Positions 45,917 to 64,000 of a stretch of 64,000 nt of DNA are shown here, one piece after another. Both the position numbers and the translations under genes were made by a program. How positions within the stretch are numbered: the stretch's first letter is position 1; every line of letters starts with the position of its first letter. The stretch is from a virus (lineage: Duplodnaviria > Heunggongvirae > Uroviricota > Caudoviricetes), in the IMG/VR virus record IMGVR_UViG_3300045921_000484, positions 89,258-153,257 of that record. One strand, given 5' to 3'. Below the pieces are notes generated by a model. The model ran no database searches and had not been told where the DNA came from. It worked only from the letters and a program-made list of their open reading frames with translations.

Positions 45917-46003
45917 TGTTTATGACGTTTACAAATAAATATGAGAAATAAATCTTTTCATTAAAATTAGACAAAGTAAGATTTATTTCTTATAATACAA
46001 ATG
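45917..46003 (+). repeat. Copy of the cassette boundary/promoter element.
   Basis: TTGTTTATGACGTTTACAAATAAATATGAGAAATAAATCTTTTCATTAAAATTAGACAAAGTAAGATTTATTTCTTATAATACAAATG. Confidence 0.6.
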
Positions 46004-46025
46004 AAAATTAAAAAAAATTAATGAA

Positions 46026-46244: not shown

Positions 46245-46335
46245 TTATTTTTTATTACATAAGCAGTTATTAACGAAACTTAAATTAATGAAATAATTGC
46301 TTATATTTGTTGTTATAAAATCTTTTTTTTTAATT

Positions 46336-46614: not shown

Positions 46615-46637
46615 CGTTCTTTTTGTATGCAAATAAA

Positions 46638-46921: not shown

Positions 46922-47071
46922 ATAATGAATTTAACTTCGTTCATTATTAAGGAAAAAGATATTGTTGTCTTTAATTTCTAAAATTCGGTAATCGGGTATT
47001 ATATGGAAATTGAAGGAGACTTTGGTATAATAAAAGAAAAGTTTATAAAACAGTAATTTCATAAAAAAAAC

Positions 47072-47266
47072 ATGGAAATAAAATTTTGGCATAGTTGCGG
47101 ATTTGTTGGGTCATCGTACTCAATGGATGTTAATGGTAAACATTATTCGTTTGGTTTTGATGATGAAAATGAATGTAAGATTAAAGCATCAAAAATTTTA
47201 TTGGATGAATATAGTATTGATATAAAACCAGAAGATATTGAATTTGTGTGGGATGGTACTCTTTAA
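47072..47266 (+). CDS. Small hypothetical protein (array gene).
   Basis: 64-aa ORF. Stop followed by CACATAACGG. Confidence 0.35.
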   Translation: MEIKFWHSCGFVGSSYSMDVNGKHYSFGFDDENECKIKASKILLDEYSIDIKPEDIEFVWDGTL

Positions 47267-47558
47267 TTCCACATAACGGATTGCAAATAATCACTAACGT
47301 CTTGATTTATATGTAGTTTGAGATTAAGCAGACAAAATAAACAAGATATTATGAAATTTAAATGTGAATAATATCTTTGAACGTGTTTCAAAAAACATCT
47401 TCTTTTTTGTCATACTTAGAAATGGAAAAGAATTAATTAAAAAAAGATTCAGATGTTATTTTTTTGCTTTAAGTTTATTGATAAATACATTAGAAGAGTT
47501 GTTGAAATAGATATATTTAGGTTTTTTTTTAATATATACTAAAAAATAACACACGAAG

Positions 47559-47771
47559 ATGAAAGATTTAAAACACATAAAAAGATTTAACGAGTCAGAA
47601 GAAAATTTGAATATATCTGATGTTAGTTATAGTGAAAAATTAAATAAGGCTGAAGAATTATTACAAAGTTTAGTTTATTTATCACAAACAGAAGAACTAA
47701 AAAGTTTTTTTGAAAATAATTATATCAGTGCTTATATGAAAGAAGTGGAAAAATTTTTAGATTCTCTTTAA
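47559..47771 (+). CDS. Small protein with MKDLKHIKRFNESEENLNISDVS module.
   Basis: 70-aa ORF. Upstream TTTTTAATATATACTAAAAAATAA leader shared with 49865 and 47828. Confidence 0.45.
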   Translation: MKDLKHIKRFNESEENLNISDVSYSEKLNKAEELLQSLVYLSQTEELKSFFENNYISAYMKEVEKFLDSL

Positions 47772-47827
47772 TTTTTCAAAAAAATAATTTAAGTTTTTAA
47801 TATTTACATAAAAAATAATTTACGAAC

Positions 47828-48211
47828 ATGAAAAGTAATAAACACATAAAAAGTTTCAACGAACATCAAGAAAACTTGGAATTTTTTGAAAAGACATTAA
47901 GTAGAATAAAAATTAAATATAAGGGAGATCCGAAGTCTTTATACCTAATTATATATACTGGATACGATGACTTTTTAAGTCATAATATTTATTATAAAGT
48001 TGATACAAAAAAAGAGGGTATTAAACTATATAAAAAAGAAGAAAAAAAATCAGCTATTGTAAATGGTTATAATATATACAATTACAAAGAAGTTTTTGAT
48101 ATGTATAAAAATATAGATAATATTCTTAAAAAATTTAATAATATAAGTGAGTGGGTAAAACGTGAGAATAATATGTTGAACAAATTTGGATTTGAGGTAG
48201 AGGAAATTTAA
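47828..48211 (+). CDS. Small protein with MKSNKHIKSFNEHQENL module.
   Basis: 127 aa. Leader and first ~16 codons near-identical to those of LRR paralogue 41879(-) and of 44197. Confidence 0.45.
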   Translation: MKSNKHIKSFNEHQENLEFFEKTLSRIKIKYKGDPKSLYLIIYTGYDDFLSHNIYYKVDTKKEGIKLYKKEEKKSAIVNGYNIYNYKEVFDMYKNIDNILKKFNNISEWVKRENNMLNKFGFEVEEI

Positions 48212-48454
48212 TTTTTTTTTTATTACATTACACATAACGTCCGCAAATATAAAACGTTTTAACACTAAACTTTAATTGAAAAATAGAATATGAATTAAAA
48301 ATACAACATTGGAAAACAAATAAAAATGTTTTATATTTGTTGTTATAAACAGTAAAATAAAAAACTTATGAAAAAACTAATTTTTGAAAAAAATATACAA
48401 AGTAAGATTTATTTTTTTTATATTTGTTGTTATATTTAATTAAATAAAAATTAT

Positions 48455-48601
48455 ATGGAGGAATTAGAAAATCAAATTGAAAAAATAAAACAAATCATCA
48501 ATGATGGTTCTTTTGAAAATAAATGGGTAAGTGATGATACTCTTATCATTTTAGAAAATCAACTAATTATTTTAGAAACACTTAAAAAACTAATGAAATG
48601 A
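48455..48601 (+). CDS. Tiny ORF (48 aa) after the promoter element copy at 48391-48454. Not in the track.
   Basis: MEELENQIEKIKQIINDGSFENKWVSDDTLIILENQLIILETLKKLMK*. ATGAAATGA overlap with the next gene. Confidence 0.3.
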   Translation: MEELENQIEKIKQIINDGSFENKWVSDDTLIILENQLIILETLKKLMK

Positions 48602-48786
48602 AATTTACAGAAGATGAGAAAAGATATTTGGATAAGTTAAGAAGAAACTATCCTAATAGAGTCATACCTACTGATGAAATTGTAAAAAATGCTCTCTCTA
48701 AAATGAGAAGAGATGGTAGTGAAATAGTTATTGATGATTTGATTATCAGAACTTGGGATGGAATTGTTGAAATGGAAGTGATTTGA
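48598..48786 (+). CDS. Small hypothetical protein (array gene).
   Basis: 62-aa ORF. Confidence 0.35.
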   Translation: MKFTEDEKRYLDKLRRNYPNRVIPTDEIVKNALSKMRRDGSEIVIDDLIIRTWDGIVEMEVI

Positions 48787-48826
48787 TTTTTGTTTAATTG
48801 AATATAACGTTTCTAAGATATATTTA

Positions 48827-48921
48827 GTGATACTATAACTTGTAATTTTGATGGAAGATTCTATATTTTCCCAAATGGTGGGAAGGTATATAGTAAAATT
48901 TTTATAAAATATTTCATTTAA
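48827..48921 (+). pseudogene. 3' fragment (start-less) of the 57-aa gene at 38871..39044.
   Basis: About 95% nt identity to 38946-39044 including the stop codon. No ATG upstream. Sits between two TATAACG boundary motifs. Confidence 0.55.
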
Positions 48922-49157
48922 TTTTTTATTGTTTATAACGTTTCTCAGATATATCTTGTTTGTGCAGTATATAATGTATTTGAATGATTTGTCATTTATA
49001 TCTATTCACTATGAAAAAAAAACAGTGAACATTTCCTGTATTTAGATCCAACAAAATATAATGCAAAAAAAGATGTTAGAAAAGATTTAATAAAAATTTA
49101 TCCTGAATAAAAAAATAATTCTTTTACTTTTTCGAATGTTTAATATATACATAAACG

Positions 49158-49448
49158 ATGATAACAACACAAAATTTAACAGAATTAGGATTCAATGAAA
49201 TACTTGATATATTCAACGGAAAACAAGTTTGGGTTTTAGGTGAGGAAGATACTGAAATATGTGGAAACCCTTGTAGATTACCAATATTATATTATAACAT
49301 AGAAACCCAAACTTGTAAGGTGATACGAGGCGAATTTTGTGTTGTTCAACGAGAATGTAAATCAGAGGAAGAAATTAGAAAATTTGTAGAATCTATTAAT
49401 TTTTTATTTCATATATCCGTTGTTATAAATAGTAAAAGAACCTATTGA
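49158..49448 (+). CDS. Small hypothetical protein (array gene) with CxxC..CxxC-like cysteine pattern.
   Basis: 96-aa ORF (EICGNPCRLP...QTCKVIRGEFCVVQREC). Confidence 0.4.
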   Translation: MITTQNLTELGFNEILDIFNGKQVWVLGEEDTEICGNPCRLPILYYNIETQTCKVIRGEFCVVQRECKSEEEIRKFVESINFLFHISVVINSKRTY

Positions 49449-49520
49449 ACAAACATTTTCGGATGTGATTAAAGATTCTTACGATAAGATAAAAGACAAT
49501 TTAGAACCACCACTTTAAGG

Positions 49521-49649
49521 TTTTTTTATTGTTTATAACGTTTGCAAATATGAGAAGTAAATCTTTTCATTAAAAAATTAGACAAAGTAAGATTTATTTC
49601 TTATATTTGTTGTTATATTTAGTTAAATAAAAATTATACAAATAAAAAA
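49521..49649 (+). repeat. Most complete copy of the cassette boundary plus promoter element (-7 box TATATTTG at 49603-49610).
   Basis: TTGTTTATAACGTTTGCAAATATGAGAAGTAAATCTTTTCATTAAAAAATTAGACAAAGTAAGATTTATTTCTTATATTTGTTGTTATATTTAGTTAAATAAAAATTATA. Partial copies at 31037, 45917, 48391, 50665 and 50970 (tandem). Confidence 0.65.
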
Positions 49650-49793
49650 ATGACAGTAGTAATTATAATTGGAATCGTTTGTGGAATACTTTGGGTATAT
49701 CTTAAAACAAAAGATGATTGGGATAATATGACGAAACCACCTAAAGGTTGGATGCAACACAAAGGATGGAGACAAAAAATAAATAAACCATAA
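49650..49793 (+). CDS. Tiny membrane-peptide ORF (47 aa) driven by the element. Not in the track.
   Basis: MTVVIIIGIVCGILWVYLKTKDDWDNMTKPPKGWMQHKGWRQKINKP*. Confidence 0.3.
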   Translation: MTVVIIIGIVCGILWVYLKTKDDWDNMTKPPKGWMQHKGWRQKINKP

Positions 49794-49864
49794 TTTTTGT
49801 TTAATTTAATATAACGTTTCTATTTAGGTTTTCTTTTTAATATATACCTTAAACATAATTTAAC

Positions 49865-50164
49865 ATGATGAAAAATAAGAATATACAAAATTTTGGAGAG
49901 TTCAATGAAAACTTGAATATATCTGATGTTAGTGATAGTGATTTATTTCAAGCGGAATACAACGGTGAGAAAATCAAAATTAAAAGAGAATTTTTGAAAC
50001 AAGGAGAAGAAAGAGAGTTATTAAAACATCTCAAAAAATTTAATTTAGGTTCGGGACACGAAGAAATGAAACTTTCAAAAATTGACAATAATAATTTTGT
50101 TTTTCGTTTAGAAACATACACAGGTGGTCCAACACAAACAATATATTTCAAGAGACTGAAATAA
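49865..50164 (+). CDS. Small protein with MMKNKNIQNFGEFNENLNISDVSD module.
   Basis: 99-aa ORF. Leader shared with 47559. Confidence 0.45.
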   Translation: MMKNKNIQNFGEFNENLNISDVSDSDLFQAEYNGEKIKIKREFLKQGEERELLKHLKKFNLGSGHEEMKLSKIDNNNFVFRLETYTGGPTQTIYFKRLK

Positions 50165-50214
50165 ATCATTATCACTAACGGACGAGTGTAAACTTAGTTA
50201 AAAACACGGATAAT

Positions 50215-50466
50215 ATGTACACAAGTTTTTATATAGCAGAAAATAGATTGGATGAACTAAAGTCTTTTATTAGGGATTTTACACCAACAGTAAGATTTAA
50301 ACACAACCCTATTAAAGAAGGTAAACAATGGTTTATTGCGTTAACTATGGAAGTAGAAGACAGTAATAAATTGAACGAACTGTTTAACAAGTGGCATAAT
50401 GAAGATAACCCACCTAAAATCCCTAATAAAAGTATTTGGAAACGAATGCTTAGTGTTTTTAATTGA
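50215..50466 (+). CDS. Small hypothetical protein (array gene).
   Basis: 83-aa ORF. Confidence 0.4.
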   Translation: MYTSFYIAENRLDELKSFIRDFTPTVRFKHNPIKEGKQWFIALTMEVEDSNKLNELFNKWHNEDNPPKIPNKSIWKRMLSVFN

Positions 50467-50663
50467 GTTTATACTTTGTTATGTTTAGTGAGGAACGAAC
50501 AATTAAACATAACGCTTGGGTATATATTGACAAATTGAAGTCTGAATCTTTTGAAGGTTGGACTGAAGATGAAACTAAAGGTTATTTAACCGCATGTGAA
50601 TCTATTAAACAGAAGGTAAAAAAGATTCAGAATTCAACAAGACTGGATTCTATGGAGGAATAA
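50463..50663 (+). CDS. Small hypothetical protein (array gene).
   Basis: 66 aa. Stop immediately followed by the boundary element. Confidence 0.35.
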   Translation: MSLYFVMFSEERTIKHNAWVYIDKLKSESFEGWTEDETKGYLTACESIKQKVKKIQNSTRLDSMEE

Positions 50664-50664
50664 T

Positions 50665-50730
50665 TTTTATGTTTTATAACGTTTGCAAATATGAGAAGTA
50701 AATCTTTTCATTAAGGTTTATACTAATTTG
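50665..50730 (+). repeat. Boundary element copy (5' half only).
   Basis: TTTTATGTTTTATAACGTTTGCAAATATGAGAAGTAAATCTTTTCATTAAGG. Confidence 0.6.
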
Positions 50731-50802
50731 TTAATTTTCTACAAGGGTACTTCATATATATTTTAATTGGGTATTATATACCTTGTTATAAACAGTTAAT
50801 TT

Positions 50803-50973
50803 ATGATAGATTTTATTTTACAAGCATCAGTTATTATTTTTTTTATTGGTGGTATGATGTGGGTGTTGGACGATGATTACTTACCAGAAGTAAGACTATT
50901 AGGTAGTAGATATTCAAAAAAAATTATGTATTACAGTGCGATATGCTTTGTAGTTGCACTTATTATTAATTGT
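50803..50973 (+). CDS. 56-aa hydrophobic peptide gene, intact copy of 44511-44663. Not in the track (under 60 aa).
   Basis: MIDFILQASVIIFFIGGMMWVLDDDYLPEVRLLGSRYSKKIMYYSAICFVVALIINCL*. Confidence 0.35.
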
Positions 50974-51046
50974 TTATAACGATTGCAAATATGAGAAGTA
51001 TTGTTTATAACGATTGCAAATATGAGAAGTAAATCTTTTCAATAAA
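50970..51046 (+). repeat. Two perfect tandem 31-nt copies of the boundary element core (TGTTTATAACGATTGCAAATATGAGAAGTAT) plus AAATCTTTTCAATAAAATAG. Abuts the truncated recombinase.
   Basis: Copy 1 at 50970-51000, copy 2 at 51001-51031. Confidence 0.7.
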
Positions 51047-51508
51047 ATAGAAAATATCAAACATAAATCAATTCTAACTTTAACATATTCTGTTGGACTT
51101 AGAGTATCGGAAATTGTTAATTTAAAAATTGAAGATATTGATTCTAAAAGAATGTTGATTCATATTAAAAATAGTAAAGGTAAGAAAGACCGAATAGTTC
51201 CTCTTTCACAAAATGTTTTAGTACTACTTAGAGAGTACTGGAAGGAATATAAGCCGCAAAATTACCTTTTTAATGGTCAAAAGAATAATAAATATTCGAT
51301 TCAATCTTGTCAAAAACTTTATAAAAAGTATATAGATCAAAATTCTTCAATTCACACACTAAGACATTCTTCACTTACAAGTCTTTTAGAAAATGCAACA
51401 GATTTGAGAATTATTCAGAAAATGGCAGGACACTCTTCTTCTAAAACGACTGAAATTTACACTCGTGTTTCTAATCAATTATTAAATAAAGTTAAACTTA
51501 CAGTTTAA
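51026..51508 (+). pseudogene. 5'-truncated tyrosine recombinase (phage integrase catalytic domain only).
   Basis: Frame open from the TGA at 51023-51025. Translation ..KHKSILTLTYSVGLRVSEIVNLKIEDIDSKRMLIHIKNSKGKKDRIVPL...HTLRHSSLTSLLENATDLRIIQKMAGHSSSKTTEIYTRV carries the R..HxxR..Y catalytic signature. No N-terminal arm or core-binding domain. Homology runs upstream of the first ATG (51152) up to the repeat element. Confidence 0.6.
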
Positions 51509-51534
51509 TATATACAGAAAAATTATTTTACTTA

Positions 51535-52104
51535 ATGGAAAAATTCTCCTCATTAAAACCAAAAAACGAATTCGAAGAAGATAGTAAAGACAAAGTTCTT
51601 TATACCGACTCATCTTTTAAAATAGTTCAGTTTGAAGATTGGTCTATAATTAAGGAAAAAGATATTGTTGTCTGTATTCCATATCTTATAGAAACAAATC
51701 AAATAGTATTAAGATATGAATATATACCGACATTCAAATATGTTGATGGTCAAGAATATCATGTTACTTTAGTTGGTGGTGGAATTGAGGTTGGTGAAAC
51801 ACCTAATAGAGCTCTTTTGAGAGAATTGGAAGAAGAGGCTGGTATAGTTTTGAGAGAAGACTTCAAACTAGAAGATATGAAACCTTTATTTATGAATAAA
51901 GGAACAGCGAATAAATACTATCCATATATTCTTACATTAACTGAAAGAGACTACCATGAAGTTGTTGCTAAAGGGGATGGATCTAAAGAGGAAAAAATGA
52001 GCAAATCTGTTAAGGTTGATGTTAAGTATATCAATTCACTTAATACTTCTGATTTAATTACTGATTATATGTTATTGAAACTAAAAGAATATCTTAATTT
52101 ATGA
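51535..52104 (+). CDS. NUDIX hydrolase.
   Basis: Nudix box GGGIEVGETPNRALLRELEEEAGI (Gx5Ex7REUxEExGU). 189 aa. Confidence 0.75.
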   Translation: MEKFSSLKPKNEFEEDSKDKVLYTDSSFKIVQFEDWSIIKEKDIVVCIPYLIETNQIVLRYEYIPTFKYVDGQEYHVTLVGGGIEVGETPNRALLRELEEEAGIVLREDFKLEDMKPLFMNKGTANKYYPYILTLTERDYHEVVAKGDGSKEEKMSKSVKVDVKYINSLNTSDLITDYMLLKLKEYLNL

Positions 52105-52399
52105 TACATAAGTTTGAATCATTTGAATCCTTAAATAAATGAGATAAGTATAGCGATTAGGTAATTTCATCTATATTAAATGATATTTCTTTACATTGGT
52201 CAATGAAAGCAAGTCTGAACCAGTGTTATCCTAATTCATTGGGTTTGAAGGGCGTTAAGAAGATAACTTGTGTGATGAGTTACTAAAATACCTTTTGGAA
52301 AAAGAATAACCAGATACCAAAAAGACTTTTAAGTAGTATTAGTAGAAAATAATTTTAATTTTTTTTTATAGATAACTTAAATTGAAACGAATTTTATAG

Positions 52400-53740
52400 T
52401 TAATTTTTCAAATAGTTTTCAAGTATAGTTTTTATTTCCTTATTTAACCCTACTAAATCCACATATCCTGAACTTGAAAAGTTTGGCTCTAATTCATAAT
52501 TGAAACACATATTAGATTGCCATTCATAGAACACATCAGCTACTGATCCAAGTTGAATTTTATAATCATAGTCCATTTCTTCCATCCAATCATTATTTAG
52601 TGGTAATGAGAAGAATTTTTCAACTTCTTTATATTCTTTTTTCTCACCAGAAGATGTCGTGTAATATTTTGTTACTTCCTTTTCGATTATTTTGTAGTTC
52701 TTAATTTCTTTATCCACAATATCTATGAATTCATCCCATAATTCTTTTTGATTTTGCTCAATACAAGCATCCATCTCCCAATAACCACAAGTTTGCTTTA
52801 TTTCTTTAACGATTTCTGATTTTTTACATAGTGTTTTTAGAGTACTTTCGGACTTTTCTTTTAGTAAGAATTCAATCAATTGATCTTCTGACATTTCTTT
52901 AACCTTTTCATAAACACTATTATAACACTCATCTTTTATTTTATTTATTACTTTTTTGATACCACCAATTTCTTCTATAACTTTTTTTATTAGAAGTATT
53001 GAGTTATCCTTATTTAATATATATTGTATTAGTGATGATGTATCTGGTTGATAATCACTGCTCAAATATTCACTATCATCTATACCATTAATTAATTCTT
53101 TTTTAAAAGATGAATTACTACTTAGTAAAGCATTTGACATATCTTCTACATCTATATGTGCGTACACCATATCACCCTTTAACTCATCATATTTCCACCC
53201 ATAGTAATCACAGAATTTTTTCGGAGTTATTTTCACTTTTTTATTTTCTATTATAAGAATACCAAGATATCCTTCAATCTCTGGAGATCCATCATCTGTC
53301 TTTATAAAGGATTCTTTTTTTACTACAATATTATTTATATCTAATTTACCACCTTCATCATATATTTCAACATCTGCTCCGAATAAATTATCATGTGCAA
53401 CCAAATCTCTAAAGTTATCACATGCAAAATGTAGTGAATCTGTTAAATCCTCATCAAGTGTTGGGTTTGTTGGATTCATATCAGGAAATATTGTTATAAA
53501 ATATGCTGGTGTTTCTTCACTACCATATTTTTTCAAATCTTGATTAAATACACTCTTAATAGTTTTGTCTTCTTTTAAGAATCTATCAGCAAATCCAAAA
53601 TCGATATTTATAATATATCTATTATGGATAAAATCTATAAGATATTCTTCTATATCATCTTTCGATAATGTCCATGTATTTTTATTAATATTTGGACTTA
53701 TCTGCTCATTTATAAACTGGTAGTATTTCTTTATTTTCAT
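52400..53740 (-). CDS. Hypothetical protein.
   Basis: 446-aa ORF. Confidence 0.55.
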   Translation of the reverse strand: MKIKKYYQFINEQISPNINKNTWTLSKDDIEEYLIDFIHNRYIINIDFGFADRFLKEDKTIKSVFNQDLKKYGSEETPAYFITIFPDMNPTNPTLDEDLTDSLHFACDNFRDLVAHDNLFGADVEIYDEGGKLDINNIVVKKESFIKTDDGSPEIEGYLGILIIENKKVKITPKKFCDYYGWKYDELKGDMVYAHIDVEDMSNALLSSNSSFKKELINGIDDSEYLSSDYQPDTSSLIQYILNKDNSILLIKKVIEEIGGIKKVINKIKDECYNSVYEKVKEMSEDQLIEFLLKEKSESTLKTLCKKSEIVKEIKQTCGYWEMDACIEQNQKELWDEFIDIVDKEIKNYKIIEKEVTKYYTTSSGEKKEYKEVEKFFSLPLNNDWMEEMDYDYKIQLGSVADVFYEWQSNMCFNYELEPNFSSSGYVDLVGLNKEIKTILENYLKN

Positions 53741-53803
53741 AAACTATATATAAAAAAAAAGAGAGACATAATCCCTCTTTTTAATAGCTGTTCGTTATTT
53801 GAA

Positions 53804-54832
53804 TTATATTTTAGAAAGTAATTCAGCTTTCTTTGTATTGAACTCCTCATCTGTTAATATTCCAGCAGAATGTAAGTCAGCAAGTTTTTTGATTAAATCA
53901 ATTACTTCATCTGACTCGCTATTTAGAGTATTTTTGAGATTTGTTTTTTTGATATCTTTAGTCTCAACAGGTTTTCTACTCTCAGGTAATATCTGAATGA
54001 TAGTTGAGGCTATGTAGTTATTGTCGAAGTCCATGTCTATCTCAGTGAATTTTTGAGAAGATGGTGTTCCTTTTTCAACTCTACCTGTTTCAATTGATCC
54101 ACTGATTGATGTAAGATTACCACTAAAATTTGATACATTTAGATTTCTTGTGTATAAACTATTATTGTTAACAGTATTTGTGGTTACATTATTTAATACT
54201 CCGCTATCTTTTCCGATATTTGTTGTTTCACTACCATATATTATATTATTGTTAACAGTATTTGTGGTTACATTATTTAATACTCCGCTATCTTTTCCGA
54301 TATTTGTTGTTTCACTACCATATATTATAGTTGGCATTGGTCTATATGGCCAGTATGGATAATATGGATAGTATGGATAATATACTTGGTGTCTTTCAAT
54401 TATAACTCTATCGAATCTTGTTTTCCAATCTTTTATTGTTAGAGTTGATTCTTTATAAAAGAAAACTTCCAATAATCCATTTTTCTCAATTGCTTTTTCT
54501 GATTCTTCTGATGATTCCACTTCATATGTTTTAAATATGAATTTCTTTTTATCATCAATAAAGCAATCAAGATAGAACCTTTCGCCTGGTTTAAGTACTA
54601 ATCCATTTTTTGAAATTGATTGTCCATTTAGTTTGATGTCACATAATACACATTCCTGTAATGGATTGTGAAGTTCTATTTCGAACTCTTGACCATCTTT
54701 TAAATAAACTTTACCGTTTTTGATTGATTTTCTTCCTCGGTCTGAAGGTTTTGATTTGTCTTTTTGGTTGTTTGTTACAATCCATGCGCTTGGTTTGGAC
54801 TGAATAGCGCGATTAGGTAATTTTGTTATCAT
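53804..54832 (-). CDS. Hypothetical protein with internal perfect tandem repeat, YYPYYPYYPYWPY tract and C-terminal SHOCT-like domain.
   Basis: 342 aa. C-terminus IDLIKKLADLHSAGILTDEEFNTKKAELLSKI (SHOCT-like). 2 x 28-aa repeat NNIIYGSETTNIGKDSGVLNNVTTNTVN. Confidence 0.55.
   Translation of the reverse strand: MITKLPNRAIQSKPSAWIVTNNQKDKSKPSDRGRKSIKNGKVYLKDGQEFEIELHNPLQECVLCDIKLNGQSISKNGLVLKPGERFYLDCFIDDKKKFIFKTYEVESSEESEKAIEKNGLLEVFFYKESTLTIKDWKTRFDRVIIERHQVYYPYYPYYPYWPYRPMPTIIYGSETTNIGKDSGVLNNVTTNTVNNNIIYGSETTNIGKDSGVLNNVTTNTVNNNSLYTRNLNVSNFSGNLTSISGSIETGRVEKGTPSSQKFTEIDMDFDNNYIASTIIQILPESRKPVETKDIKKTNLKNTLNSESDEVIDLIKKLADLHSAGILTDEEFNTKKAELLSKI
54161..54328. repeat. Perfect 2 x 84-nt tandem duplication inside gene 53804..54832.
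   Basis: 54161-54244 is identical to 54245-54328. Confidence 0.8.
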
Positions 54833-55012
54833 AGTATTCTTTTTATTTTTTTGACCTATATCTTTGAGTCTTATTCAAACTCTCAACGGTATCACAATGA
54901 ATACCCGACATAAGTTTAATGAACAGCTATAATCTATATATAAAAATTATTCTCTTTGTTTTATTATAAATAAAAAATATCCTTATATTTGTATATTATA
55001 AATAAAAAATAA

Positions 55013-56224
55013 GTGATTATACAAGAGAATTTTATATTTGAAACATTTATCAAATTAACATCCAAAACCTACCCATATGGACATGAGGATGAATTAGTTG
55101 ATGAAATGATTAAGTGTGGTCTTTTTCCTAAAAATTTAGAGAAAGATTCATACGGTAACTACTTTTATAGAGTAGGTGATTCCCGAACAATATTTGCATC
55201 ACATCTTGATACAGCTTGTAAAGAATCAACTTCGGTTTTTCATGTTATTGATGGTAATATTATTAAGACCGATGGTAAAAGCGTTTTAGGTGCTGATGAC
55301 AAGGCTGGTGTTTCTGTAATGTTATTCATGATGTTACACAATATTCCAGGTCTTTATTATTTTTTTATTGGTGAGGAAGTTGGTTGTATTGGTTCAGGCT
55401 TAGCTTCAAGATATGGTGATTTTAAAGGTAAGTATGATAGAATCATCTCTTTTGATAGGCGTGGTGTTGATTCTGTTATTACATTTCAATCATCTAAAAG
55501 ATGTTGTTCTGATGAATTTGCTGATGCTTTAGTGAAAGAACTTAATAAAAGCGGATTAAAATACGAAAGGGATGATACTGGTGTTTATACAGATTCAGCT
55601 GAATTCATTGATATAATTCCTGAATGTACAAACTTATCTGTTGGTTATTATAGAGAACATACCTACAATGAGTCTCAAGATATAAAACACTTGATTGAAT
55701 TAGCAAATGCTTGTTTGAAAGTTGATTGGGAAAACCTTCCAACTAGTCGAGATATAAAAAAGACAGAATACAAGTCTTGGAATTATAGATCTACTTATTC
55801 TTCTGGTAGATACTATGAATACAATAAAAACAATTGGAGAAACAGAGATTGGAGTCATACAAAGAAAACATATGGATATCATGATGATTGGTATGACCAA
55901 ATATCTGATGAGGAGTATGATGGTAATCTGGATGGTTTGAGTTACGATATATTTAAGTATAATAAGAAGACTAGAAGAAGTAACAAGAAGAAAAAGTTCC
56001 GTCAGTTCTATGATAATGGAGGCGAATTGATTGAAATTGGTAGTAAATCAATTACTAATTCATATAGTACACACTACGATTATATACTTTCTAAGTTTTG
56101 TAGTGAACCTTTAACATTTGATGAATTAGAGATTGTTAAAGATCAGTATTTAGATATGGGGGTTGAAAGTGATAGAATGTTCTATGCATACTTAATAGAG
56201 CATATTAACGAGCATGGTCAATAA
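55013..56224 (+). CDS. Clan MH zinc metallopeptidase (M20/M28/M42-like).
   Basis: HLDTA, GADDKAG and GEEVGCIGS motifs in order. 403 aa with basic, Y-rich C-terminal extension. Confidence 0.55.
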   Translation: MIIQENFIFETFIKLTSKTYPYGHEDELVDEMIKCGLFPKNLEKDSYGNYFYRVGDSRTIFASHLDTACKESTSVFHVIDGNIIKTDGKSVLGADDKAGVSVMLFMMLHNIPGLYYFFIGEEVGCIGSGLASRYGDFKGKYDRIISFDRRGVDSVITFQSSKRCCSDEFADALVKELNKSGLKYERDDTGVYTDSAEFIDIIPECTNLSVGYYREHTYNESQDIKHLIELANACLKVDWENLPTSRDIKKTEYKSWNYRSTYSSGRYYEYNKNNWRNRDWSHTKKTYGYHDDWYDQISDEEYDGNLDGLSYDIFKYNKKTRRSNKKKKFRQFYDNGGELIEIGSKSITNSYSTHYDYILSKFCSEPLTFDELEIVKDQYLDMGVESDRMFYAYLIEHINEHGQ

Positions 56225-56417
56225 TATCAGATAATTTTATTATTTCATCAGGAGCATTTTTGATTTTGGAATTTGGAACATTATGTGTAACTTTGTAAGA
56301 TTTCTTAGAAATTTTTTTTAGTATTTTAACAGGCGTTATCATATCATTGTACCAATACTCAATGAGAACGATATCACCTTCTTTATAGAATGATTTGTAT
56401 TCTAATATAAATTTCAT
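56205..56417 (-). CDS. Small hypothetical protein.
   Basis: 70-aa ORF. Overlaps the peptidase 3' end by 20 nt on the opposite strand. Confidence 0.3.
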   Translation of the reverse strand: MKFILEYKSFYKEGDIVLIEYWYNDMITPVKILKKISKKSYKVTHNVPNSKIKNAPDEIIKLSDIIDHAR

Positions 56418-56431
56418 AAAACTATATATTA

Positions 56432-57412
56432 ATGTTTAATAGGCTTATTTTTGATTCAGAATTAATTAACTTTCTTGATAGAACATCTAGAAACAAAGTT
56501 TCTATGTTATTACTACATGGATCTGGTCATTTGATATCCGAAGAAGGTAATTTTATCTCTCGTGATCCAAAAAAAGCCGATGTTTGGACATACTTTCCGA
56601 AATCAAAATATAAAAGAATTATGGTAGATCATACCAAACCATTTCTTGGTTTTACTACCGAACCATGGGAAGAAGGAATTGGTAGAGTGAGTATCAGAGC
56701 TGGTCGATTTGCCAAGAAGTTTCTATCTGAGAAAGCAATTTCCGAATATAAAATCACAGATAAGGAAATTGAAGAATTTGTAAATCTATATAAGTCCTAT
56801 TTTATAAGAAAACCTGAAAACCTAAAAATTGTTGAAGGTAAAGAAATTTTAAAGTGGTATTTAGAAGAAAATTATCTACTAATCAATGGTGATATGAAGT
56901 GCGGGACTCTTTGGAATTCTTGTATGAGATATCGTGATAGAAATAAGTATATGGAGCTTTACGCCAGAAACAAAAATATCAAAATGTTAATACTTTTAGA
57001 TGATAGTGGTAAGTTATCTGCTAGGGCCTTATTATGGGATATGGTTTACGATAGAGATGGAAACACTTATAAGGTTATGGATAGAATTTATAGTGTGTAT
57101 GATCACGATGTAAATTTTTTCAAAGATTGGGCTAAGGAAAATGGATATATTTATAAAGCCGAACAAAGCGCTAAAATAGAAAAGTTTTTTATTGTTAATG
57201 ATGTTAAAACTAAGTTATATCTAAATGTTCAGTTAGATGAATGGAGATTAGAGCATTATCCCTATCTTGATACATTTAAGTTTTTTGATTATAACAAAGG
57301 AATTCTACATAATAATGATATGTCTAGTTTTCAATTCATTTTAACACAATCTAATGGTGCTCTTGAACCAAATGAAGAACCAAGTGAAGATGATGAATTG
57401 GTTGATGAATAA
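56432..57412 (+). CDS. Hypothetical protein, paralogue of 1093..2058.
   Basis: See 1093..2058. Acidic C-terminal tail. Confidence 0.55.
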   Translation: MFNRLIFDSELINFLDRTSRNKVSMLLLHGSGHLISEEGNFISRDPKKADVWTYFPKSKYKRIMVDHTKPFLGFTTEPWEEGIGRVSIRAGRFAKKFLSEKAISEYKITDKEIEEFVNLYKSYFIRKPENLKIVEGKEILKWYLEENYLLINGDMKCGTLWNSCMRYRDRNKYMELYARNKNIKMLILLDDSGKLSARALLWDMVYDRDGNTYKVMDRIYSVYDHDVNFFKDWAKENGYIYKAEQSAKIEKFFIVNDVKTKLYLNVQLDEWRLEHYPYLDTFKFFDYNKGILHNNDMSSFQFILTQSNGALEPNEEPSEDDELVDE

Positions 57413-57522
57413 GTGAATGTTCAACCATATTAGCTTTTAATTATGTTTTTGGCACGATATTTGTTTTCAGTTATAAAAATAAAGCCTAAAATTAGTAAGT
57501 AAAAAAATTAAAACACAAGCTT

Positions 57523-58752
57523 ATGAAAACCTTGAAAAAAGTCCTTATATCACTGATTGCCATAGGTGCAACAGCCTGCTCAAGTACCCGTAACACCGGA
57601 ATATACGATGATGATATCTATTACACACCTCGAAGTAATAATCAAAATCCGGTTAATAATAATAATACGGTTACTCAAAACAATAATAATACAAATTCTG
57701 ATCCTAATCAGCGCCAACAAAATACTGAATCATACACTGATGTTAGTGGTAACACTTATATTACAAGCAACTACTATGGAAATAATAATACTTTTTATCA
57801 AGATGATTATTATGACTATGCTTATTCAGCAAGAATAAGAAGATTCCACTCCGGAGTATCATTTGGTTATTACGATCCATGGTTTACCAATATGTACTGG
57901 TACACATACGACCCATTTTTCTTTGGTATAAGTATTTATATGACATATAGTTGGTGGTATTTAACACCATGGGTAAGATATAGCTGGTATTGGGGTTGGG
58001 GTTCAAGTTGGGACTGGGTGCCCGGCTGGGGATGGGGTAGTGGCTATTTGTATGGATACAATCACGGTTATTGGAATGGATACTGGAACGGTTACTACAA
58101 TGGCTTAAATAATGGTTTAGCAATAAATTATTACAATAGTTTCGATAGTAATAGTTGGTATGGTTCTAGAGGTTCTTCAAGTGGTGCAGGTAATGGCACT
58201 AATACAAGAGAACCTAGAAGTTTGGGACAAATTTATCAAAATGCTACCGGAGACAATCCACAAATGCGCCAAATAAACACTATTGATGAAAGAGGTAGTA
58301 TAAGAAATAGTGGAAACACAATATCTTCTAAACCAATTGATAATATTAGTAACATAAGATCAGGAAATACAGGTAGTGGTTCGGGAACAAAAGATATAAA
58401 ATCCTCTTTTGAAATAGATCCATCAAATGGAAGAAATGGTAAAAGAATTGATAATGCTGATGTTTCTAAAAAAGGACGAGATAATATGAGTAATACTAAT
58501 CCCGTAGATAATATTGAAAGACCAAATACCGGTGGAAGGAATCAATCTATTGATAATATTAGTCGTACCAATAATGGGAGAGAAAACAATTTTCCAACTC
58601 AAAGAGAATCTAATATTCAACCTAAAAATAATTACTATAATCAACTAAGTAACAAACCTCAATACAACTATAATAATAGTAATGGATTTTTCAGTGATCC
58701 ATCAAGAAGTGGCGGAGGAAGTATAGGAGGTGGTCGGGGAAGGTCAAGATAA
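57523..58752 (+). CDS. Lipoprotein with N/Q/Y/W/G-rich low-complexity (prion-like) body.
   Basis: Signal peptide MKTLKKVLISLIAIGATAC (lipobox). Tracts NNNNTVTQNNNNTN, WYWGWGSSWDWVPGWGWGSGYLYGYNHGYWNGYWNGYYNG. Confidence 0.55.
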   Translation: MKTLKKVLISLIAIGATACSSTRNTGIYDDDIYYTPRSNNQNPVNNNNTVTQNNNNTNSDPNQRQQNTESYTDVSGNTYITSNYYGNNNTFYQDDYYDYAYSARIRRFHSGVSFGYYDPWFTNMYWYTYDPFFFGISIYMTYSWWYLTPWVRYSWYWGWGSSWDWVPGWGWGSGYLYGYNHGYWNGYWNGYYNGLNNGLAINYYNSFDSNSWYGSRGSSSGAGNGTNTREPRSLGQIYQNATGDNPQMRQINTIDERGSIRNSGNTISSKPIDNISNIRSGNTGSGSGTKDIKSSFEIDPSNGRNGKRIDNADVSKKGRDNMSNTNPVDNIERPNTGGRNQSIDNISRTNNGRENNFPTQRESNIQPKNNYYNQLSNKPQYNYNNSNGFFSDPSRSGGGSIGGGRGRSR

Positions 58753-58796
58753 ATTTAACCAAGCCGGAATTAGCTTTCAATTCATTCTAACACAAG

Positions 58797-58830
58797 ATAA
58801 ACCCACTTATTAAGTGGGTTTATTTATATT
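58797..58830. terminator. Bidirectional terminator between convergent genes.
   Basis: ACCCACTT-att-AAGTGGGT then TTTATTTATATTTT. Same stem as the 10104 terminator. Confidence 0.6.
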
Positions 58831-60666
58831 TTATAATCCGTTTTGAAATTTATATTTTTCATATCTATCAACTAAGTCGATCAGGAATTTATTTCTTACA
58901 ATATCTTCAACTCCAAACTTATGACTATAAACATCACTTAGTTTATTTTTATAGTTTTGTTGACTTTCCGTTCCATCGTCTTTGAATTCATATTCACCGG
59001 TTACAAGTGATATAAAATCTAAAAATTTAGAATCTTTTTTCTTAATATCATATTGTGATATGTCACCCATCATAACAGCTTTTGAGTTTTTTCCTAAACG
59101 AGTTGACCATAACATTAATTGATGCATGTTACAGTTTTGAGCTTCATCTAATAACATTATTGAATCATCATAGGTAGTACCCCTCATATATGCAATAGGC
59201 TCTACAACTATTTCACCAATTGCCTTCATAAATTCAAATGATTGCTTTCCTAATATTTTCTGAAATGTTGAAAAGTAAGATTGCATATACGGATCTGTTT
59301 TTTCTTCTATTGTTCCAGGTAAGAATCCTAAATTTTCACCACTTTCTTGTATAGGTTTTGTTAGAATTATCTTTTCAATTTTCTTATCAGCTAATAAACC
59401 AATTGCTGAATAACAAGCAACAAATGTGTTATGTGTTACTATATAATCATTTGTTAGATATAACCTTGATGGACTATCTACCATTATACACTGAGCTTCT
59501 TTCTTTCCGATTAATTTAGCAGATGTAATATACCTATTAGGTTTATATTTTGTTTTTGGTATAACCCTATCCAATTTTCTTTTAAATGAAAATGGATTTA
59601 TGTTTGGGTTCATTGTTACAGTTATTCTATATGATATCTTTTCTGATTTTTTTACACTTGGGTTATATGGTGAATGGTCAGTTGCTATGCCACCCAAAGA
59701 CTGTATCAACTCCTTAACATCATTTACTAGCCTAATAGAGTTAGAGCCAAAATAGATAGATCCATCTTTATCTATGCTACCATCAGAATCCATAAGACCC
59801 CTTAGTAGCTTAATTCTATTATCAAGAGAGTTATACTTATATTCATTTGGTATAAACTTATTATCGGATTTCAAATTATATAATCCTAATTCTTTTAAAT
59901 ATTTAATATATTTATTTTTATTTTTTTTAATATCAGATGTGACAGAGTAATTATATAAGTCTCTGTTTGTTAAAATCTCATATTCTTCTATACTATTTTG
60001 AAAATAATTTATTATTTCCTCATCAGATGTTGTTAATTCTACATGTTCTCTGAAACAACCATCTCCTAATAAAATTCCAAATAGGTAAGGGTCTATTTCA
60101 ACTTTTCTTTCATTTAGATTTACTGGTGATGTTATGGGTATTGTGTAATTCAATCTACCTCTTTTTGTATATAGACTCTCAATAATTTCTAACGTTGTTT
60201 TGACAGATCCTGATTTTGGATTTTTACTTTTTCTATCTTTTTCACTGGTAACGAACCATAGATGATCAGAACAACATTCAACTTTGGATCCATCTGAGAA
60301 TGATAATTCCCAAATATCTTTTTTACCCTGTGGGAATACACCAGTTACAATGGTTGAATTGCCATCATCTGATATGACTCTATCTCCAACTTCTATATCA
60401 CCCATAGTTATCCATCCATTTGGTGTTAATATTAGTGAATCTAATGGTTGAGCTTTAGCAGTTCCAGCAGGTCCTTGACATATAGTTAGCGTATTATTCC
60501 TTATTCCATTGTAGAGCTCGTATTGTTTAGGTGTTAGTGATATTATTTGTTTTATTTTTTCCCACTCTTGTTTGTTGATTCCTGATTTTCTAGGAGTTCT
60601 GTTACGAGTAAAATCGTCAATGCTTTGTTCGATTTCTCTTTGATTTCTTTGCTTTTCTTTGCTCAT
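58831..60666 (-). CDS. phoH: PhoH-like ATPase interrupted in its P-loop by an intein with LAGLIDADG homing endonuclease.
   Basis: N-extein ..LTICQGPAGTAK (Walker A) then intein AQPLDSLILTPNG.. .. YIVTHN. C-extein TFVACYSAIGLL..IILTKP..LDEAQNCNMHQLMLWSTRLGKNSKAVMMGDISQYD (PhoH motifs). Extein total ~269 aa. Confidence 0.8.
   Translation of the reverse strand: MSKEKQRNQREIEQSIDDFTRNRTPRKSGINKQEWEKIKQIISLTPKQYELYNGIRNNTLTICQGPAGTAKAQPLDSLILTPNGWITMGDIEVGDRVISDDGNSTIVTGVFPQGKKDIWELSFSDGSKVECCSDHLWFVTSEKDRKSKNPKSGSVKTTLEIIESLYTKRGRLNYTIPITSPVNLNERKVEIDPYLFGILLGDGCFREHVELTTSDEEIINYFQNSIEEYEILTNRDLYNYSVTSDIKKNKNKYIKYLKELGLYNLKSDNKFIPNEYKYNSLDNRIKLLRGLMDSDGSIDKDGSIYFGSNSIRLVNDVKELIQSLGGIATDHSPYNPSVKKSEKISYRITVTMNPNINPFSFKRKLDRVIPKTKYKPNRYITSAKLIGKKEAQCIMVDSPSRLYLTNDYIVTHNTFVACYSAIGLLADKKIEKIILTKPIQESGENLGFLPGTIEEKTDPYMQSYFSTFQKILGKQSFEFMKAIGEIVVEPIAYMRGTTYDDSIMLLDEAQNCNMHQLMLWSTRLGKNSKAVMMGDISQYDIKKKDSKFLDFISLVTGEYEFKDDGTESQQNYKNKLSDVYSHKFGVEDIVRNKFLIDLVDRYEKYKFQNGL
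59428..60453 (-). mobile_element. Intein (~342 aa, Ala1 type) with two LAGLIDADG motifs.
   Basis: Block A AQPLDSLILTPNG (no Cys/Ser1). Block B-like CCSDHLW. LFGILLGDGCF and LRGLMDSDGSI. Terminal THN followed by +1 Thr. Confidence 0.7.
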
Positions 60667-60769
60667 TTAAGGATTATTTTTTTATATATTCGGTTCCTTA
60701 CTATACCTTTATATGTTAATCAGAAACATAAAGTTTTAATATATAAGGTAAAATTTTAATTTTTTATAA

Positions 60770-60985
60770 GTGAAAAACAGAGATGATCTTATATATGATT
60801 TAATTTTCTCTGAGGAGACTTCTTATAGAATAGATATATCTGAATATGTTAAGAATATTTATGAACATAATGAATTCGTATCAGATATAAAAAGTATTTT
60901 AAAAAAATCAAAAGTCACAATAGTAAAGAGTTCGGTTTTGTTAGATAGCAAAACTGCTATATGGGAATTAAAAGTAAAAAAGTAA
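60770..60985 (+). CDS. Small hypothetical protein.
   Basis: 71-aa ORF. Confidence 0.35.
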   Translation: MKNRDDLIYDLIFSEETSYRIDISEYVKNIYEHNEFVSDIKSILKKSKVTIVKSSVLLDSKTAIWELKVKK

Positions 60986-61006
60986 TATGTGGAAATTAGA
61001 CACTGA

Positions 61007-64000
61007 GTATAATAAATGGTATAAACAAGGAGATTCATTAACTAAAGAAAATTTCGATTATTTAAAACAATCACTTGACAAAGTTAGATTTTATTCTAAA
61101 TGTTTAAGTGGTGCTACATATTATCCTGTTAATGATTTAAATAATATCTATGATATTATGAGCTCATATGTACCTAGAAACTGGTATGTTAGCACTACAT
61201 ATAGTATAACCTCATTTCCATCTCAGAACCCAAGACCAATAACATCAACATCTTCTAATGAGTATTACAATAAATATGTTGCTGAATATGGTTTAACACT
61301 AAAGAATTTATTTACACCCAAAAGATTAATAGATGATTCAATATCAAATTTTATTTATGTTGATATTGCAACAACTCAAGAATTGGAAAATATAGGTCAA
61401 AATGTTATTGACTTGGTAATTGATGATTTTAAAGTGAAAGAAGGTCATAGAGTTTTAGTTAAAGATCAAAAAACTTATGTTACTCTTTCAAATCTGATAG
61501 ATCCTGATGCATATTTTTATCCAATACCTTATTATGTTGACCCAAATCAACCAGTTGGATCATTAGATACTATATACTATTACTATAATGAGTTGAATGG
61601 TATATATAAATATGACGGTAGCAAATTAGTTAGAGAATCTGACCTTGATTCATATGAGGATTGTATTAGATATAGCATCTGTGTAAAATTAGGAACCAAA
61701 AATAAAGATAAACAATATCATCTTGTGAGAATGAAGGATGGTTATTATCCAAGTGTTTCGGAGAATCAACCAATTGAGTTTAAGGAAAAGCACAATTGGG
61801 TTATGAGAAATAGAGTTGACTATAATAACGTATTAGACCTAAATTACTTTGATGTTATTAAACATGGCACTCAAGAGTACTTTGATATAGTTGATAACTT
61901 TACTTATAGCATACCAGAAAGATTAATTGGTGTTGGTGAGTTTGGAGTAATTATAAACTATCAAAACAATGTATCACACATAATTAACAATAAATATAAG
62001 GTTAATTTAAGAAGTATATCTGAGGTTAATGGATACTATTGGATATGTGGAGATCAAGGTACACTACTTAAAGTATCTAAGGTTGATTTTTCTATCCAAA
62101 AGGTGGATATTGGTGTTTTGGGTTCACTGAGATCTGTATCATTTTTTAATGATGTTAGAGGTGTTGTTGTTGGTGATTTCAATAATATTTATTATACAGA
62201 TAATGGTGGTAAGAAATGGAACAGAATATTGGTTCCTGAGTTTAATGCCTATAGCTATAATAAAGTTCTATATTATGACATAGATAATTTCTTTGTTGGT
62301 GGTAATTCTGGTGTATTTCTTGAATTTAAGCTAGTTTTAGGTGAATGGAATATAAATAGAAAAAGAGTAGCTAAATATTTAGATGATGATGAATATCTTC
62401 TTGTTGAGGATATAAATGATATTATATCATTCACATCAAGTAATTGGGGACTGACTTATTCTTATAGTACGCAAAGCATTCCAACTAATAAAGAATCATT
62501 GATGTTGGTTACTAATAATGGTAATTTAATAGTTTATAACCTAAATGGATATGTTGATTATGATTTTTTATACTTAGAATTCAATCAAAGATATGGTGAT
62601 ATTAATAGTGTTTCTCTTAGAAAAAATTCTAATGAGTTTTATTTTTCATCCGATAACATCTATTCATTTGATATAAATAATTTCCAAGTCATAGGAAGCT
62701 CAGTATCTAATGTCATATATGGACTAACCGGAGCTACACTATCATATAGTTTATATGCTAATAAGATAGCTGACTATAACGGTGATGAGATATTAGTATC
62801 AGGAAATAATTCTCTTTTAGATTTTGCTAGTTATTCATATGTTATAGATGGAGTGATGGATCCAACCTTTAATCAGAGATTAAAGTCTAAGTTGTTGTTT
62901 CTAGATTATGATATAGCAGCTAAGCTTAATTTCTTTGATGATCAACAAAACTATAGACTTCCGAATTCATTGACATTTAGTGGAGCATCTTTTGTTACCG
63001 GTTCTTATTTCGTTGTTGATGAGTTATTTGGTGAAAAAAACTGGATAACATATTGGAAAGATAGAGAAAAAACATTTGAGTATTATACGAGTATGAGTGA
63101 TGCCAATGTTGTTTATCCATCGACTACTTTTTCATATAGTGGTATTACTTATTCTATGATTCTTTCTATTACTTCATCAAGTATACATATAGATTATAAT
63201 AGTATATTACCATTAGCTCCAACAATTGGAGATGATAGTAGAAGTAGGTATGTAATGGGAACTGGTCCTTCTATAAATGCTACAAGTTCTATTAGTACTG
63301 ATGTATATTTATATAAGTATTTAATGATAATAAAAGTTCAATCACCAATTATTGGTGCTGATGTAGGTGATGTTATATATTTATATTCTTCAGTTGTAGA
63401 GGGTCATTTTATTGTTAATAAAGTAATTTCTTCAGGTGCTAATAGATATTATTATTTATATACAGACTTTAATGAAACAATATTAAACGACTTAAAATCA
63501 TTACCACCAACAGAATTTATTAGATTTGTTAATCTAAATAAATATGGTTCAAGTCCAGGAGAAACTGCTTATCCTATTCCATCAATATTTCCACCATTAT
63601 ATGATGATGATTCGGATTATGTTGCTAATAGTGCTGCTTCAAATTTCAGTAATAAGTTTAATTTACATCCAATATCTAAGGCATTTGAGACTTCATTTGC
63701 AAGCGCTAGTAATATATTAACTATATCTCCTATTTTTAGTAGAGAGTCAGCTTATTACAATTTAGGTTCAAAAGTTAATCTTTCCGGAACAACATATAGT
63801 ATGACTTATAGAAATACATTCTTGAAATTTGGATATAAGCCACACTATGATATACTATCATATCTTGAAAATATAAATTCAAATTTTAATAGTGGTAAAG
63901 AAATCTTAGCTATGCCTAATTACTACTATGTTCCTTGTGTTGACTTTCCATATTATTCAGGATTTAGTGGATTAACAAGTGGTAACATATATCTAGATAC
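61007..64000 (+). CDS. Large structural protein (5' partial in window, over 997 aa) with BNR/Asp-box-like motifs.
   Basis: Read by hand: ATG at 61007 and the frame stays open to the window end (absent from the track because it has no stop). YTDNGGKKWNRI resembles S/TxDxGxxW BNR motif. Confidence 0.6.

Follow-up and report, generated by a model that had tools for sequence, protein, structure and literature searches.

Class 3 inteins are defined by a non-nucleophilic first residue, by a Trp-Cys-Thr (WCT) triplet at positions B:12, F:4 and G:5 of the splicing blocks, and by a Ser or Thr at position +1, immediately after the intein (PMC2807308, PMC5050341). They occur mostly within the P-loops of helicase-like ATPases and many are phage-derived (PMC2807308); the junction of the invariant P-loop Lys with the nucleophilic Thr has been called the 'classic' site of P-loop insertion (PMC5050341). 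Here an insert that interrupts the P-loop of a PhoH-like ATPase is analysed within a 64,000-nucleotide stretch (termed here the window) of a Caudoviricetes virus (IMG/VR record IMGVR_UViG_3300045921_000484, positions 89,258 to 153,257). Judging from sequence homology and structural modeling, this insert is very probably a class 3 intein that carries a LAGLIDADG endonuclease and that would splice itself out of the PhoH precursor.

The described systems closest to it are the class 3 DnaB P-loop inteins, namely the mycobacteriophage Bethlehem DnaB intein, Mycobacterium smegmatis (Msm) DnaBi1 (6bs8) and M. chimaera DnaB-1 (MchDnaB1; 6rix, 6riy). Like the window intein, these begin with a non-nucleophilic residue (in MchDnaB1 an Ala1 preceded by ..GK), possess the WCT triplet together with a terminal THN, and sit between the Walker A Lys and the next hydroxyl residue; moreover, the catalytic Cys is aligned and the HINT fold matches. 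They differ in that their host is DnaB rather than PhoH, in that the mycobacterial inteins of known structure are mini-inteins that lack the endonuclease, a full LAGLIDADG domain being kept by the window intein, and in that positions B:6-B:7 are Ala-Asp in the solved DnaB inteins but Cys-Cys in the window intein. Identity between the splicing domains is only about 27-30%.

PhoH itself is among the 15 most frequent bacterial intein hosts, with 21 inteins within the Actinobacteria and Deinococcus-Thermus (PMC4760082). The PhoH inteins of M. fortuitum and M. xenopi belong to class 3 and have been aligned with DnaB inteins (PMC6195587), and an intein is present in M. smegmatis PhoH (PMC7360933), though its splicing has been described as still unstudied (PMC13347336). 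A preliminary description of the window, made from the sequence alone, took PhoH for an unestablished host and this site for an unusual one; the mycobacterial cases, the rank of PhoH among hosts and the 'classic' Lys-Thr junction contradict that view. The published PhoH inteins share their host family with the window intein, and the mycobacterial ones also share its mechanistic class, but the host of the window copy is a short PhoH of the phage type, encoded by a huge phage. Inteins are reported to be commonplace in huge gut phages (PMC12880540); in the literature searched, no description was found of a phage PhoH intein or of the PhoH P-loop site specifically.

A further parallel is provided by inteins of the PI-SceI (VMA) type, which likewise nest a LAGLIDADG enzyme within a HINT domain. 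PI-SceI, however, is a class 1 intein (Cys1, Cys+1) of a V-ATPase subunit, has an extra DNA-recognition region and shows 14-17% identity to the window intein.

The split phoH gene and its class 3 signature

The precursor gene (Table 1) runs through 611 codons in one unbroken frame, within DNA of 29% G+C, and its product is identical to a protein (P0001) from the metagenomes of the Joint Genome Institute (JGI), relatives of which lie on contigs of 200-590 kb. Within the precursor, the Pfam PhoH profile (PF02562) is matched with an E-value of 1.2e-44 and is covered from position 32 on only; when residues 72-413 are deleted in silico, the remaining 269 residues match positions 2-205 of 205 with an E-value of 8.1e-52, and both Walker A (GPAGTAK-T) and Walker B (LLDEAQN) are then present. 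The insert, as translated, ends in DYIVTHN, and the downstream extein opens with TFVACYSAIGLL and contains IILTKP as well as Walker B. That a PhoH ATPase is split in its P-loop, between the Walker A Lys and Thr, had been proposed in the preliminary description and is borne out both by the sequence and by homology; the strings quoted there (CCSDHLW, EAQCIMVD and VTHN among them) are all present at coordinates that translation confirms, and its estimates of about 30 kDa for spliced PhoH and about 39 kDa for the intein are close to the predicted 31.1 and 39.1 kDa. The match scores of the PhoH, LAGLIDADG_3 and class 3 DnaB comparisons are such that these features of the phoH::intein gene are real, far beyond chance.

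Table 1. Features of the phoH::intein gene, in coordinates of the window
Feature	Position	Strand	Basis
phoH::intein precursor open reading frame (ORF), complete, 611 aa, 70.2 kDa	58831..60666	-	ORF listing, Pfam
N-extein, aa 1-71, ending in ICQGPAGTAK (truncated Walker A)	60454..60666	-	translation
Intein, aa 72-413, 342 aa, 39.1 kDa, HINT with nested LAGLIDADG homing endonuclease	59428..60453	-	Pfam, PDB search, AlphaFold, Foldseek
C-extein, aa 414-611 and stop, Walker B IMLLDEAQN	58831..59427	-	translation, Pfam
Block A, AQPLDSLILTPNG, opening the intein with Ala1, a non-nucleophilic first residue	60415..60453	-	translation
Block B, GSKVECCSDHLWFV, with His B:10, Trp B:12 and Cys-Cys B:6-B:7	60250..60291	-	translation, MAFFT
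LAGLIDADG homing-endonuclease domain	59542..60111	-	Pfam LAGLIDADG_3, E 1e-12
Block C, LFGILLGDG	60058-60084	-	
Block D, ..NKFIP	59848-59877	-	
Block E, LRGLMDSDG	59779-59805	-	
Blocks F and G and the +1 residue, EAQCIMVDSPSRLYLTNDYIVTHN/T (slash, splice junction), with Cys393 F:4, Thr411 G:5, His412-Asn413 and Thr414 +1	59425..59499	-	translation

For the assignment to class 3, the 120 best homologues out of a search over 5.8 billion proteins were aligned with MAFFT. The first residue, Ala72 (Ala1), is not Cys, Ser or Thr, and is Ala in 118 of the 120; in block A, A1, Q2 and G13 are invariant. Every homologue conserves the block B His (His135, B:10) and Trp (Trp137, B:12, within the motif DHLW), the block F Cys (Cys393, F:4, within EAQC) and the three residues Thr411, His412 and Asn413 (G:5 to G:7). 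Lys precedes the junction (position -1) in 119 sequences, and the +1 residue, Thr414, which conforms to the class 3 definition, is Thr in 113 and Ser in five. The closest sequences of known structure are MchDnaB1 (E 6e-11) and Msm DnaBi1 (E 1e-9): the block B H-x-W of 6rix and 6bs8 is the counterpart of the His135-x-Trp137 motif, THN aligns with THN, and the residues aligned with Cys393 are Cys124 (MchDnaB1) and Cys118 (Msm DnaBi1), both of which are treated as the catalytic Cys (PMC7664689, PMC6195587). Thus the Ala1 and the W-C-T hallmarks pointed out previously are (nearly) invariant among the homologues, and a comparison with the intein block definitions finds all of Ala1, B:12 Trp, F:4 Cys, G:5 Thr, the terminal His-Asn and the +1 Thr in place.

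An AlphaFold2 model of the intein, built from a 65-sequence alignment, has a mean predicted local distance difference test (pLDDT) score of 93 and a predicted template modeling (pTM) score of 0.91. In this model the N- and C-terminal halves of a HINT fold flank the endonuclease; the intein as a whole lies in frame inside PhoH. The best full-length Foldseek match in the PDB is PI-SceI (query template modeling (TM) score 0.76-0.78), followed by the TliVMA, PhoVMA and PI-PfuI inteins; the HINT part is matched by class 3 DnaB mini-inteins (target TM about 0.8) and the LAGLIDADG part by I-DmoI. Within the endonuclease both LAGLIDADG helices, each with its catalytic Asp (LFGILLGD202G, LRGLMDSD295G), and the block D Lys (K270, in NKFIP) are intact; these three residues, numbered D131, K199 and D224 within the intein, are conserved in at least 90% of the 65 homologues, among which G132, D222 and G225 are invariant. 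Hence the LAGLIDADG endonuclease recognized earlier from its two motifs is upheld by the Pfam match and by the likeness of its fold to I-DmoI and PI-SceI.

A peculiarity of the host should be mentioned here. In the PhoH clade to which the window protein belongs, Walker A reads GPAGTAK-T or GPAGTSK-T--that is, Ala or Ser replaces the canonical second Gly before the Lys--and this is seen both with and without an intein (60454-60477, codons 64-71, in the window; L001 6001-6810).

Empty site, selection and spread

Searching GenBank phages with tblastn revealed a natural counterpart without the insert: in LR756502.1, a 642-kb uncultured huge phage, only the exteins match, as two adjoining pieces. 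The PhoH encoded there has 270 residues, is 85% identical to the spliced window product (86.6% over the C-extein versus its C-terminal part) and reads ICQGPAGTAK/TFVACYAAIGLL across the junction; over about 25 bp on either side of the junction the DNA of the two is nearly identical. Deleting residues 72-413 of the window precursor recreates the arrangement of this natural intein-less allele, from which the exact excision boundaries are taken. The PhoH of LR745206.1 (635 kb) is likewise without an intein. An empty site in relatives was foreseen in the preliminary description as GPAGTGK/T; its position was correct, but the residue before the Lys is Ala rather than Gly, as in the GPAGTAK/TFVACY of LR756502.1. 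At the nucleotide level, a megablast search of window positions 50000-64000 against GenBank phages gave two short matches only, and relatives were located by protein-level search.

Selective pressures on the parts of the gene were estimated by the Nei-Gojobori method, as ratios of nonsynonymous to synonymous substitution rates (dN/dS), from a comparison with an 85%-identical relative (P0002). The ratio is 0.056 for the N-extein and 0.037 for the C-extein, 0.18 and 0.065 for the N- and C-terminal halves of the HINT domain, respectively, and 0.24 for the endonuclease domain; between the window and LR756502.1 the exteins give 0.048. The exteins are therefore under very strong purifying selection, and selection on the endonuclease is relaxed yet still purifying. 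Since such constraint on exteins whose Walker A is split makes sense only if PhoH is reconstituted, splicing of the window intein is strongly implied by these sequence comparisons.

Intein and exteins have followed partly separate courses. In one set of homologues (P0057-P0063, P0076, P0078, P0081) the inteins are 60-65% identical to that of the window and the exteins 33-40%, while the exteins and intein of P0003 are 94% and 67% identical, respectively, and those of P0036 73% and 49%. Overall, extein identity to the window protein spans 33-95% among intein-bearing alleles, and close relatives differ in the presence of the intein at one precisely conserved site. Taken with the presence/absence polymorphism, such decoupling is consistent with lateral spread through homing, and the decoupled identities suggest homing as their cause. 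The window intein is probably still mobile: this claim of the preliminary description gains indirect support from the intact catalytic residues, the endonuclease dN/dS, the polymorphism and the decoupling.

The family is widespread. The protein search returned 2,317 matches at E-values up to 1e-5, of which the best 120 nearly all combine PhoH with LAGLIDADG_3; confirmed stretches number 535 in IMG/VR, many of them on contigs of 100-480 kb, and at least 547 in GTDB species representatives. No Mycobacterium was found among the best 80 loci of the genome-collection scan. In cellular genomes the inteins follow the pattern GK/AQPL...C(C or D)xEHLW...QCI...VTHN/T and occupy the P-loops of Streptomyces RecG, Hymenobacter SNF2, large methylase-helicases and the PIN-PhoH2 protein of a Bradymonadales metagenome-assembled genome (MAG). 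These RecG, SNF2, methylase-helicase and PIN-PhoH2 inteins share with the window intein the features GK/AQPL...(C)C.(D or E)HLW...QCI...VTHN/T and a LAGLIDADG domain, with 33-46% identity to the window protein. Two of them resemble it further by interrupting the P-loop of a PhoH domain, namely that of the Bradymonadales MAG and that of the cultured Vibrio phage 1.161.O (MG592529, NVP1161O_150; L166 712-3159), whose PIN-PhoH2 reads AAGSGK/AQPLYSK...FVVTHN/TLMA and whose deposited annotation is 'hedgehog/hint domain protein' only. The difference lies in the hosts: the other members of the family reside either in other proteins or in PIN-PhoH2 (about 470 residues when spliced), whereas the window host is a 269-residue stand-alone PhoH.

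The P-loop is not the only point of entry into PhoH, for at least four intein insertion sites were observed among metagenomic phage PhoH proteins (P0037, P0038, P0043, P0049, P0055, P0065, P0093, P0113): (i) the P-loop, GK/T; (ii) GFLPG/T, with Pro1 (P0093); (iii) MRG(R or T)/T, class 3 and sometimes with Ser1; and (iv) Walker B, LLDE/C...HN/CQN, class 1. Some metagenomic PhoH proteins, of about 870-1040 residues, contain two inteins. The PhoH proteins of Deinococcus sp. VB343 and D. antarcticus (L061 1973-4195, L067 1982-4207) harbor a class 3 LAGLIDADG intein of the same 'AQPL...CCxEHLW...C...VTHN/T' family as the window intein, but located just before Walker B (FMRGR/AQPL...VVTHN/TLND), with the P-loop intact; hence at least some published bacterial PhoH inteins occupy a site other than that of the window.

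Proposed maturation and competing interpretations

By analogy with the Bethlehem DnaB, Dra Snf2, Msm DnaBi1 and MchDnaB1 inteins, the 70-kDa precursor would mature as follows. The bifunctional class 3 intein separates Lys71, the invariant Lys of Walker A, from the Mg-coordinating Thr, and an N-S acyl shift would be impossible at its Ala1. Instead Cys393 (F:4) would attack the Lys71-Ala72 bond, activated by His135 and Trp137, to form a branched thioester, after which the N-extein would pass to the hydroxyl of Thr414 (+1), yielding the standard block G branched ester. Cyclization of Asn413, with the help of His412, would then free the 39-kDa intein, and an O-N shift would restore the GPAGTAK-T Walker A of an active, ATP-binding 31-kDa PhoH. 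During co-infection the LAGLIDADG enzyme would cut intein-less phoH near CAAGGACCTGCTGGAACNGCNAAA/ACATTTGTTGCTTGTTAT, and repair would copy the intein into the cut allele; such homing would explain the patchy distribution of the intein among the phoH genes of huge phages. A candidate target sequence is supplied by the empty site of LR756502.1.

Several observations weigh against this picture, or at least against its stronger forms. On the splicing domain of the window, the Pfam models Hint, Hom_end_hint and Intein_splicing and the NCBIfam intein models all score below threshold, so that the intein assignment draws on class 3 homology and the structural model instead. Experimental data on splicing, on a branched intermediate or on DNA cleavage were not found for phage PhoH inteins. 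As regards mobility, the decoupling of intein and extein identities could partly reflect differences in rate rather than transfer, the rate of evolution is higher in the endonuclease than in the splicing domain, and shortened endonuclease regions occur in some homologues (505-544 aa); the window copy could thus have left its mobile phase behind.

This last point leads to an interpretation in which class 3 splicing is kept but the endonuclease is inactive, the intein being passed on vertically as a passenger at a late stage of the homing cycle. In its favor are the dN/dS of the endonuclease, three to four times that of the C-terminal HINT half and the exteins, and the existence of PhoH inteins with truncated endonuclease regions (P0070, P0074, P0075, P0088). 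Yet the same ratio is clearly purifying, the window copy has both catalytic Asp residues as well as the block D Lys, each conserved in at least 90% of the 65 homologues aligned, a close syntenic relative has an empty allele, and the identities of intein and exteins are decoupled. Loss of endonuclease activity is accordingly considered improbable.

Roughly as improbable, though it is an elaboration of class 3 splicing rather than a denial of it, is conditional splicing, in which the block B Cys-Cys and the F:4 Cys would make PhoH maturation sensitive to redox state or zinc, thereby providing a post-translational switch at the time of infection. The Cys-Cys doublet (VECCSDHLW, codons 131-132, 60271-60276, minus strand) occupies B:6-B:7; in class 1 inteins the usual residue at B:7 is Thr, Ser or Asn. 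Its residues, C60 and C61 in intein numbering, are at least 90% conserved, with Cys at B:7 in 113 of the 120 homologues. A precedent exists in the Msm DnaBi1 class 3 intein, which is subject to oxidative and zinc inhibition through its F:4 Cys (PMC6195587, PMC7360933). The published partners in Msm DnaBi1 differ, however, and the +1 residue here is Thr and not Cys; the Streptomyces RecG relatives show Cys-Asp rather than Cys-Cys; and conservation of the doublet could be purely structural or catalytic. A role of the doublet in a switch is speculative. (A regular-expression survey of splice-block residues covered 160 loci preselected by CCxEHLW but was too crude, its lazy matching having given spurious C-termini; nothing beyond the existence of Cys-Cys and Cys-Asp variants is taken from it.) The fuller version of the idea--that the Cys-Cys and F:4 trio is redox- or metal-sensitive, that phages thereby gate PhoH activation on the intracellular state of the host and that phage PhoH, with its four or more independent insertion sites, is a preferred regulatory target--is slightly less likely still. 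If true, huge phages and the many others with this intein family in their ATPase P-loops would have in it a conditional switch and not simply a parasite.

The suggestion that the insert is a non-splicing or decayed Hint domain, leaving an inactive PhoH precursor or a pseudogene carried for its endonuclease alone, could appeal to the sub-threshold scores of the curated intein splicing models and to the fact that splicing is deduced from sequence; it is nevertheless ruled out by catalytic positions that are invariant among the 120 homologues and by extein dN/dS values of 0.04-0.06 which, with Walker A split, are sensible only if the ATPase is reconstituted, and it fits poorly with a 611-codon frame that remains intact despite the low G+C content. 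The least credible proposal, that of a class 2 (KlbA-like) intein in which the N-terminal junction is the direct target of the +1 residue and no block F thioester is formed, appeals to the Ala1 that is common to KlbA inteins but is ruled out by the Thr at +1 (Thr or Ser in 118 of the 120 homologues) and by the invariant WCT triplet, since class 2 inteins have Cys+1 and lack the triplet (PMC2807308), and the closest solved relatives, moreover, are class 3 inteins rather than KlbA.

Genomic surroundings and implications

ORFs neighboring phoH match PHROGs families for a DnaB-like helicase, the large subunit of ribonucleotide reductase, a UvsX-like recombinase and a phage peptidase; these phage neighbors, and collinearity with LR756502.1, rule out a bacterial chromosomal origin of the window. 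The genes that flank phoH are collinear between the window and LR756502.1 with one exception, an extra ORF of 409 aa (57523-58752, plus strand) that adjoins phoH. This ORF begins with a lipoprotein-like signal (..ATAC/SS), and its body is of low complexity and extremely rich in Asn, Tyr, Trp and Gly; it has no counterpart at the LR756502.1 locus. No group I or group II intron was found near phoH in an Rfam scan of the window, in which a tRNA-Cys (GCA; 40115-40186, plus strand) is the sole match by either Rfam or ARAGORN. Nor is there any sign of an alternative genetic code: with code 11, ORFs of at least 100 aa account for about 77% of the length of the window.

Elsewhere in the window, positions 44000-52200 contain many small plus-strand ORFs with repeated intergenic motifs between them--one of about 45 nt (TTGTTTATAACGTTTGCAAATATGAGAAGTAAATCTTTTCATTAA) and one of about 25 nt (TATATTTGTTGTTATAAACAGT), each occurring five times--that could represent promoters or regulatory sites of the phage. 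A direct repeat of about 145 nt (44519-44663 and 50839-50979, 95-98% identical) encloses 6.3 kb, and a short tyrosine-recombinase-like ORF is located at 51152-51508. Two paralogous families with conserved N-termini are also present (19914-21585, plus strand; 41879-43942, minus strand; and 44197, 47559, 47828 and 49865, plus strand): the first, in four copies, is characterized by MKHLIQYRLFES..ICNKYGIxNFTINxDGSIDVDGDVDLS and the second, in four small ORFs, by MKxNKHIxSFNEHQENL.

With regard to its significance, the window intein is an ordinary example of a described kind--class 3, endonuclease-bearing, inserted into a P-loop, and within a host family known for class 3 inteins--and for biology at large it changes little, since it adds another class 3 intein to those known from ATPase P-loops. 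Its usefulness lies rather in the combination that it offers, namely a full-length class 3 intein that has kept its endonuclease and whose +1 residue is naturally Thr, an empty target site that exists in nature, and naturally occurring variants in the hundreds; the family could thus serve studies of class 3 chemistry and of homing-site recognition, as well as intein engineering.

There are also practical consequences. The phoH gene is a marker in work on phage diversity, and intein-bearing alleles can distort surveys based on length or on the polymerase chain reaction (PCR). Public pipelines label such genes 'PhoH' or 'hedgehog/hint domain protein' because curated intein hidden Markov models (HMMs) miss a splicing domain of this type, and as a result class 3 'AQPL' inteins are easily missed in routine annotation. 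Finally, the occurrence of at least four intein sites within metagenomic phage PhoH contributes to the picture of ATPase active sites as hot spots for inteins.

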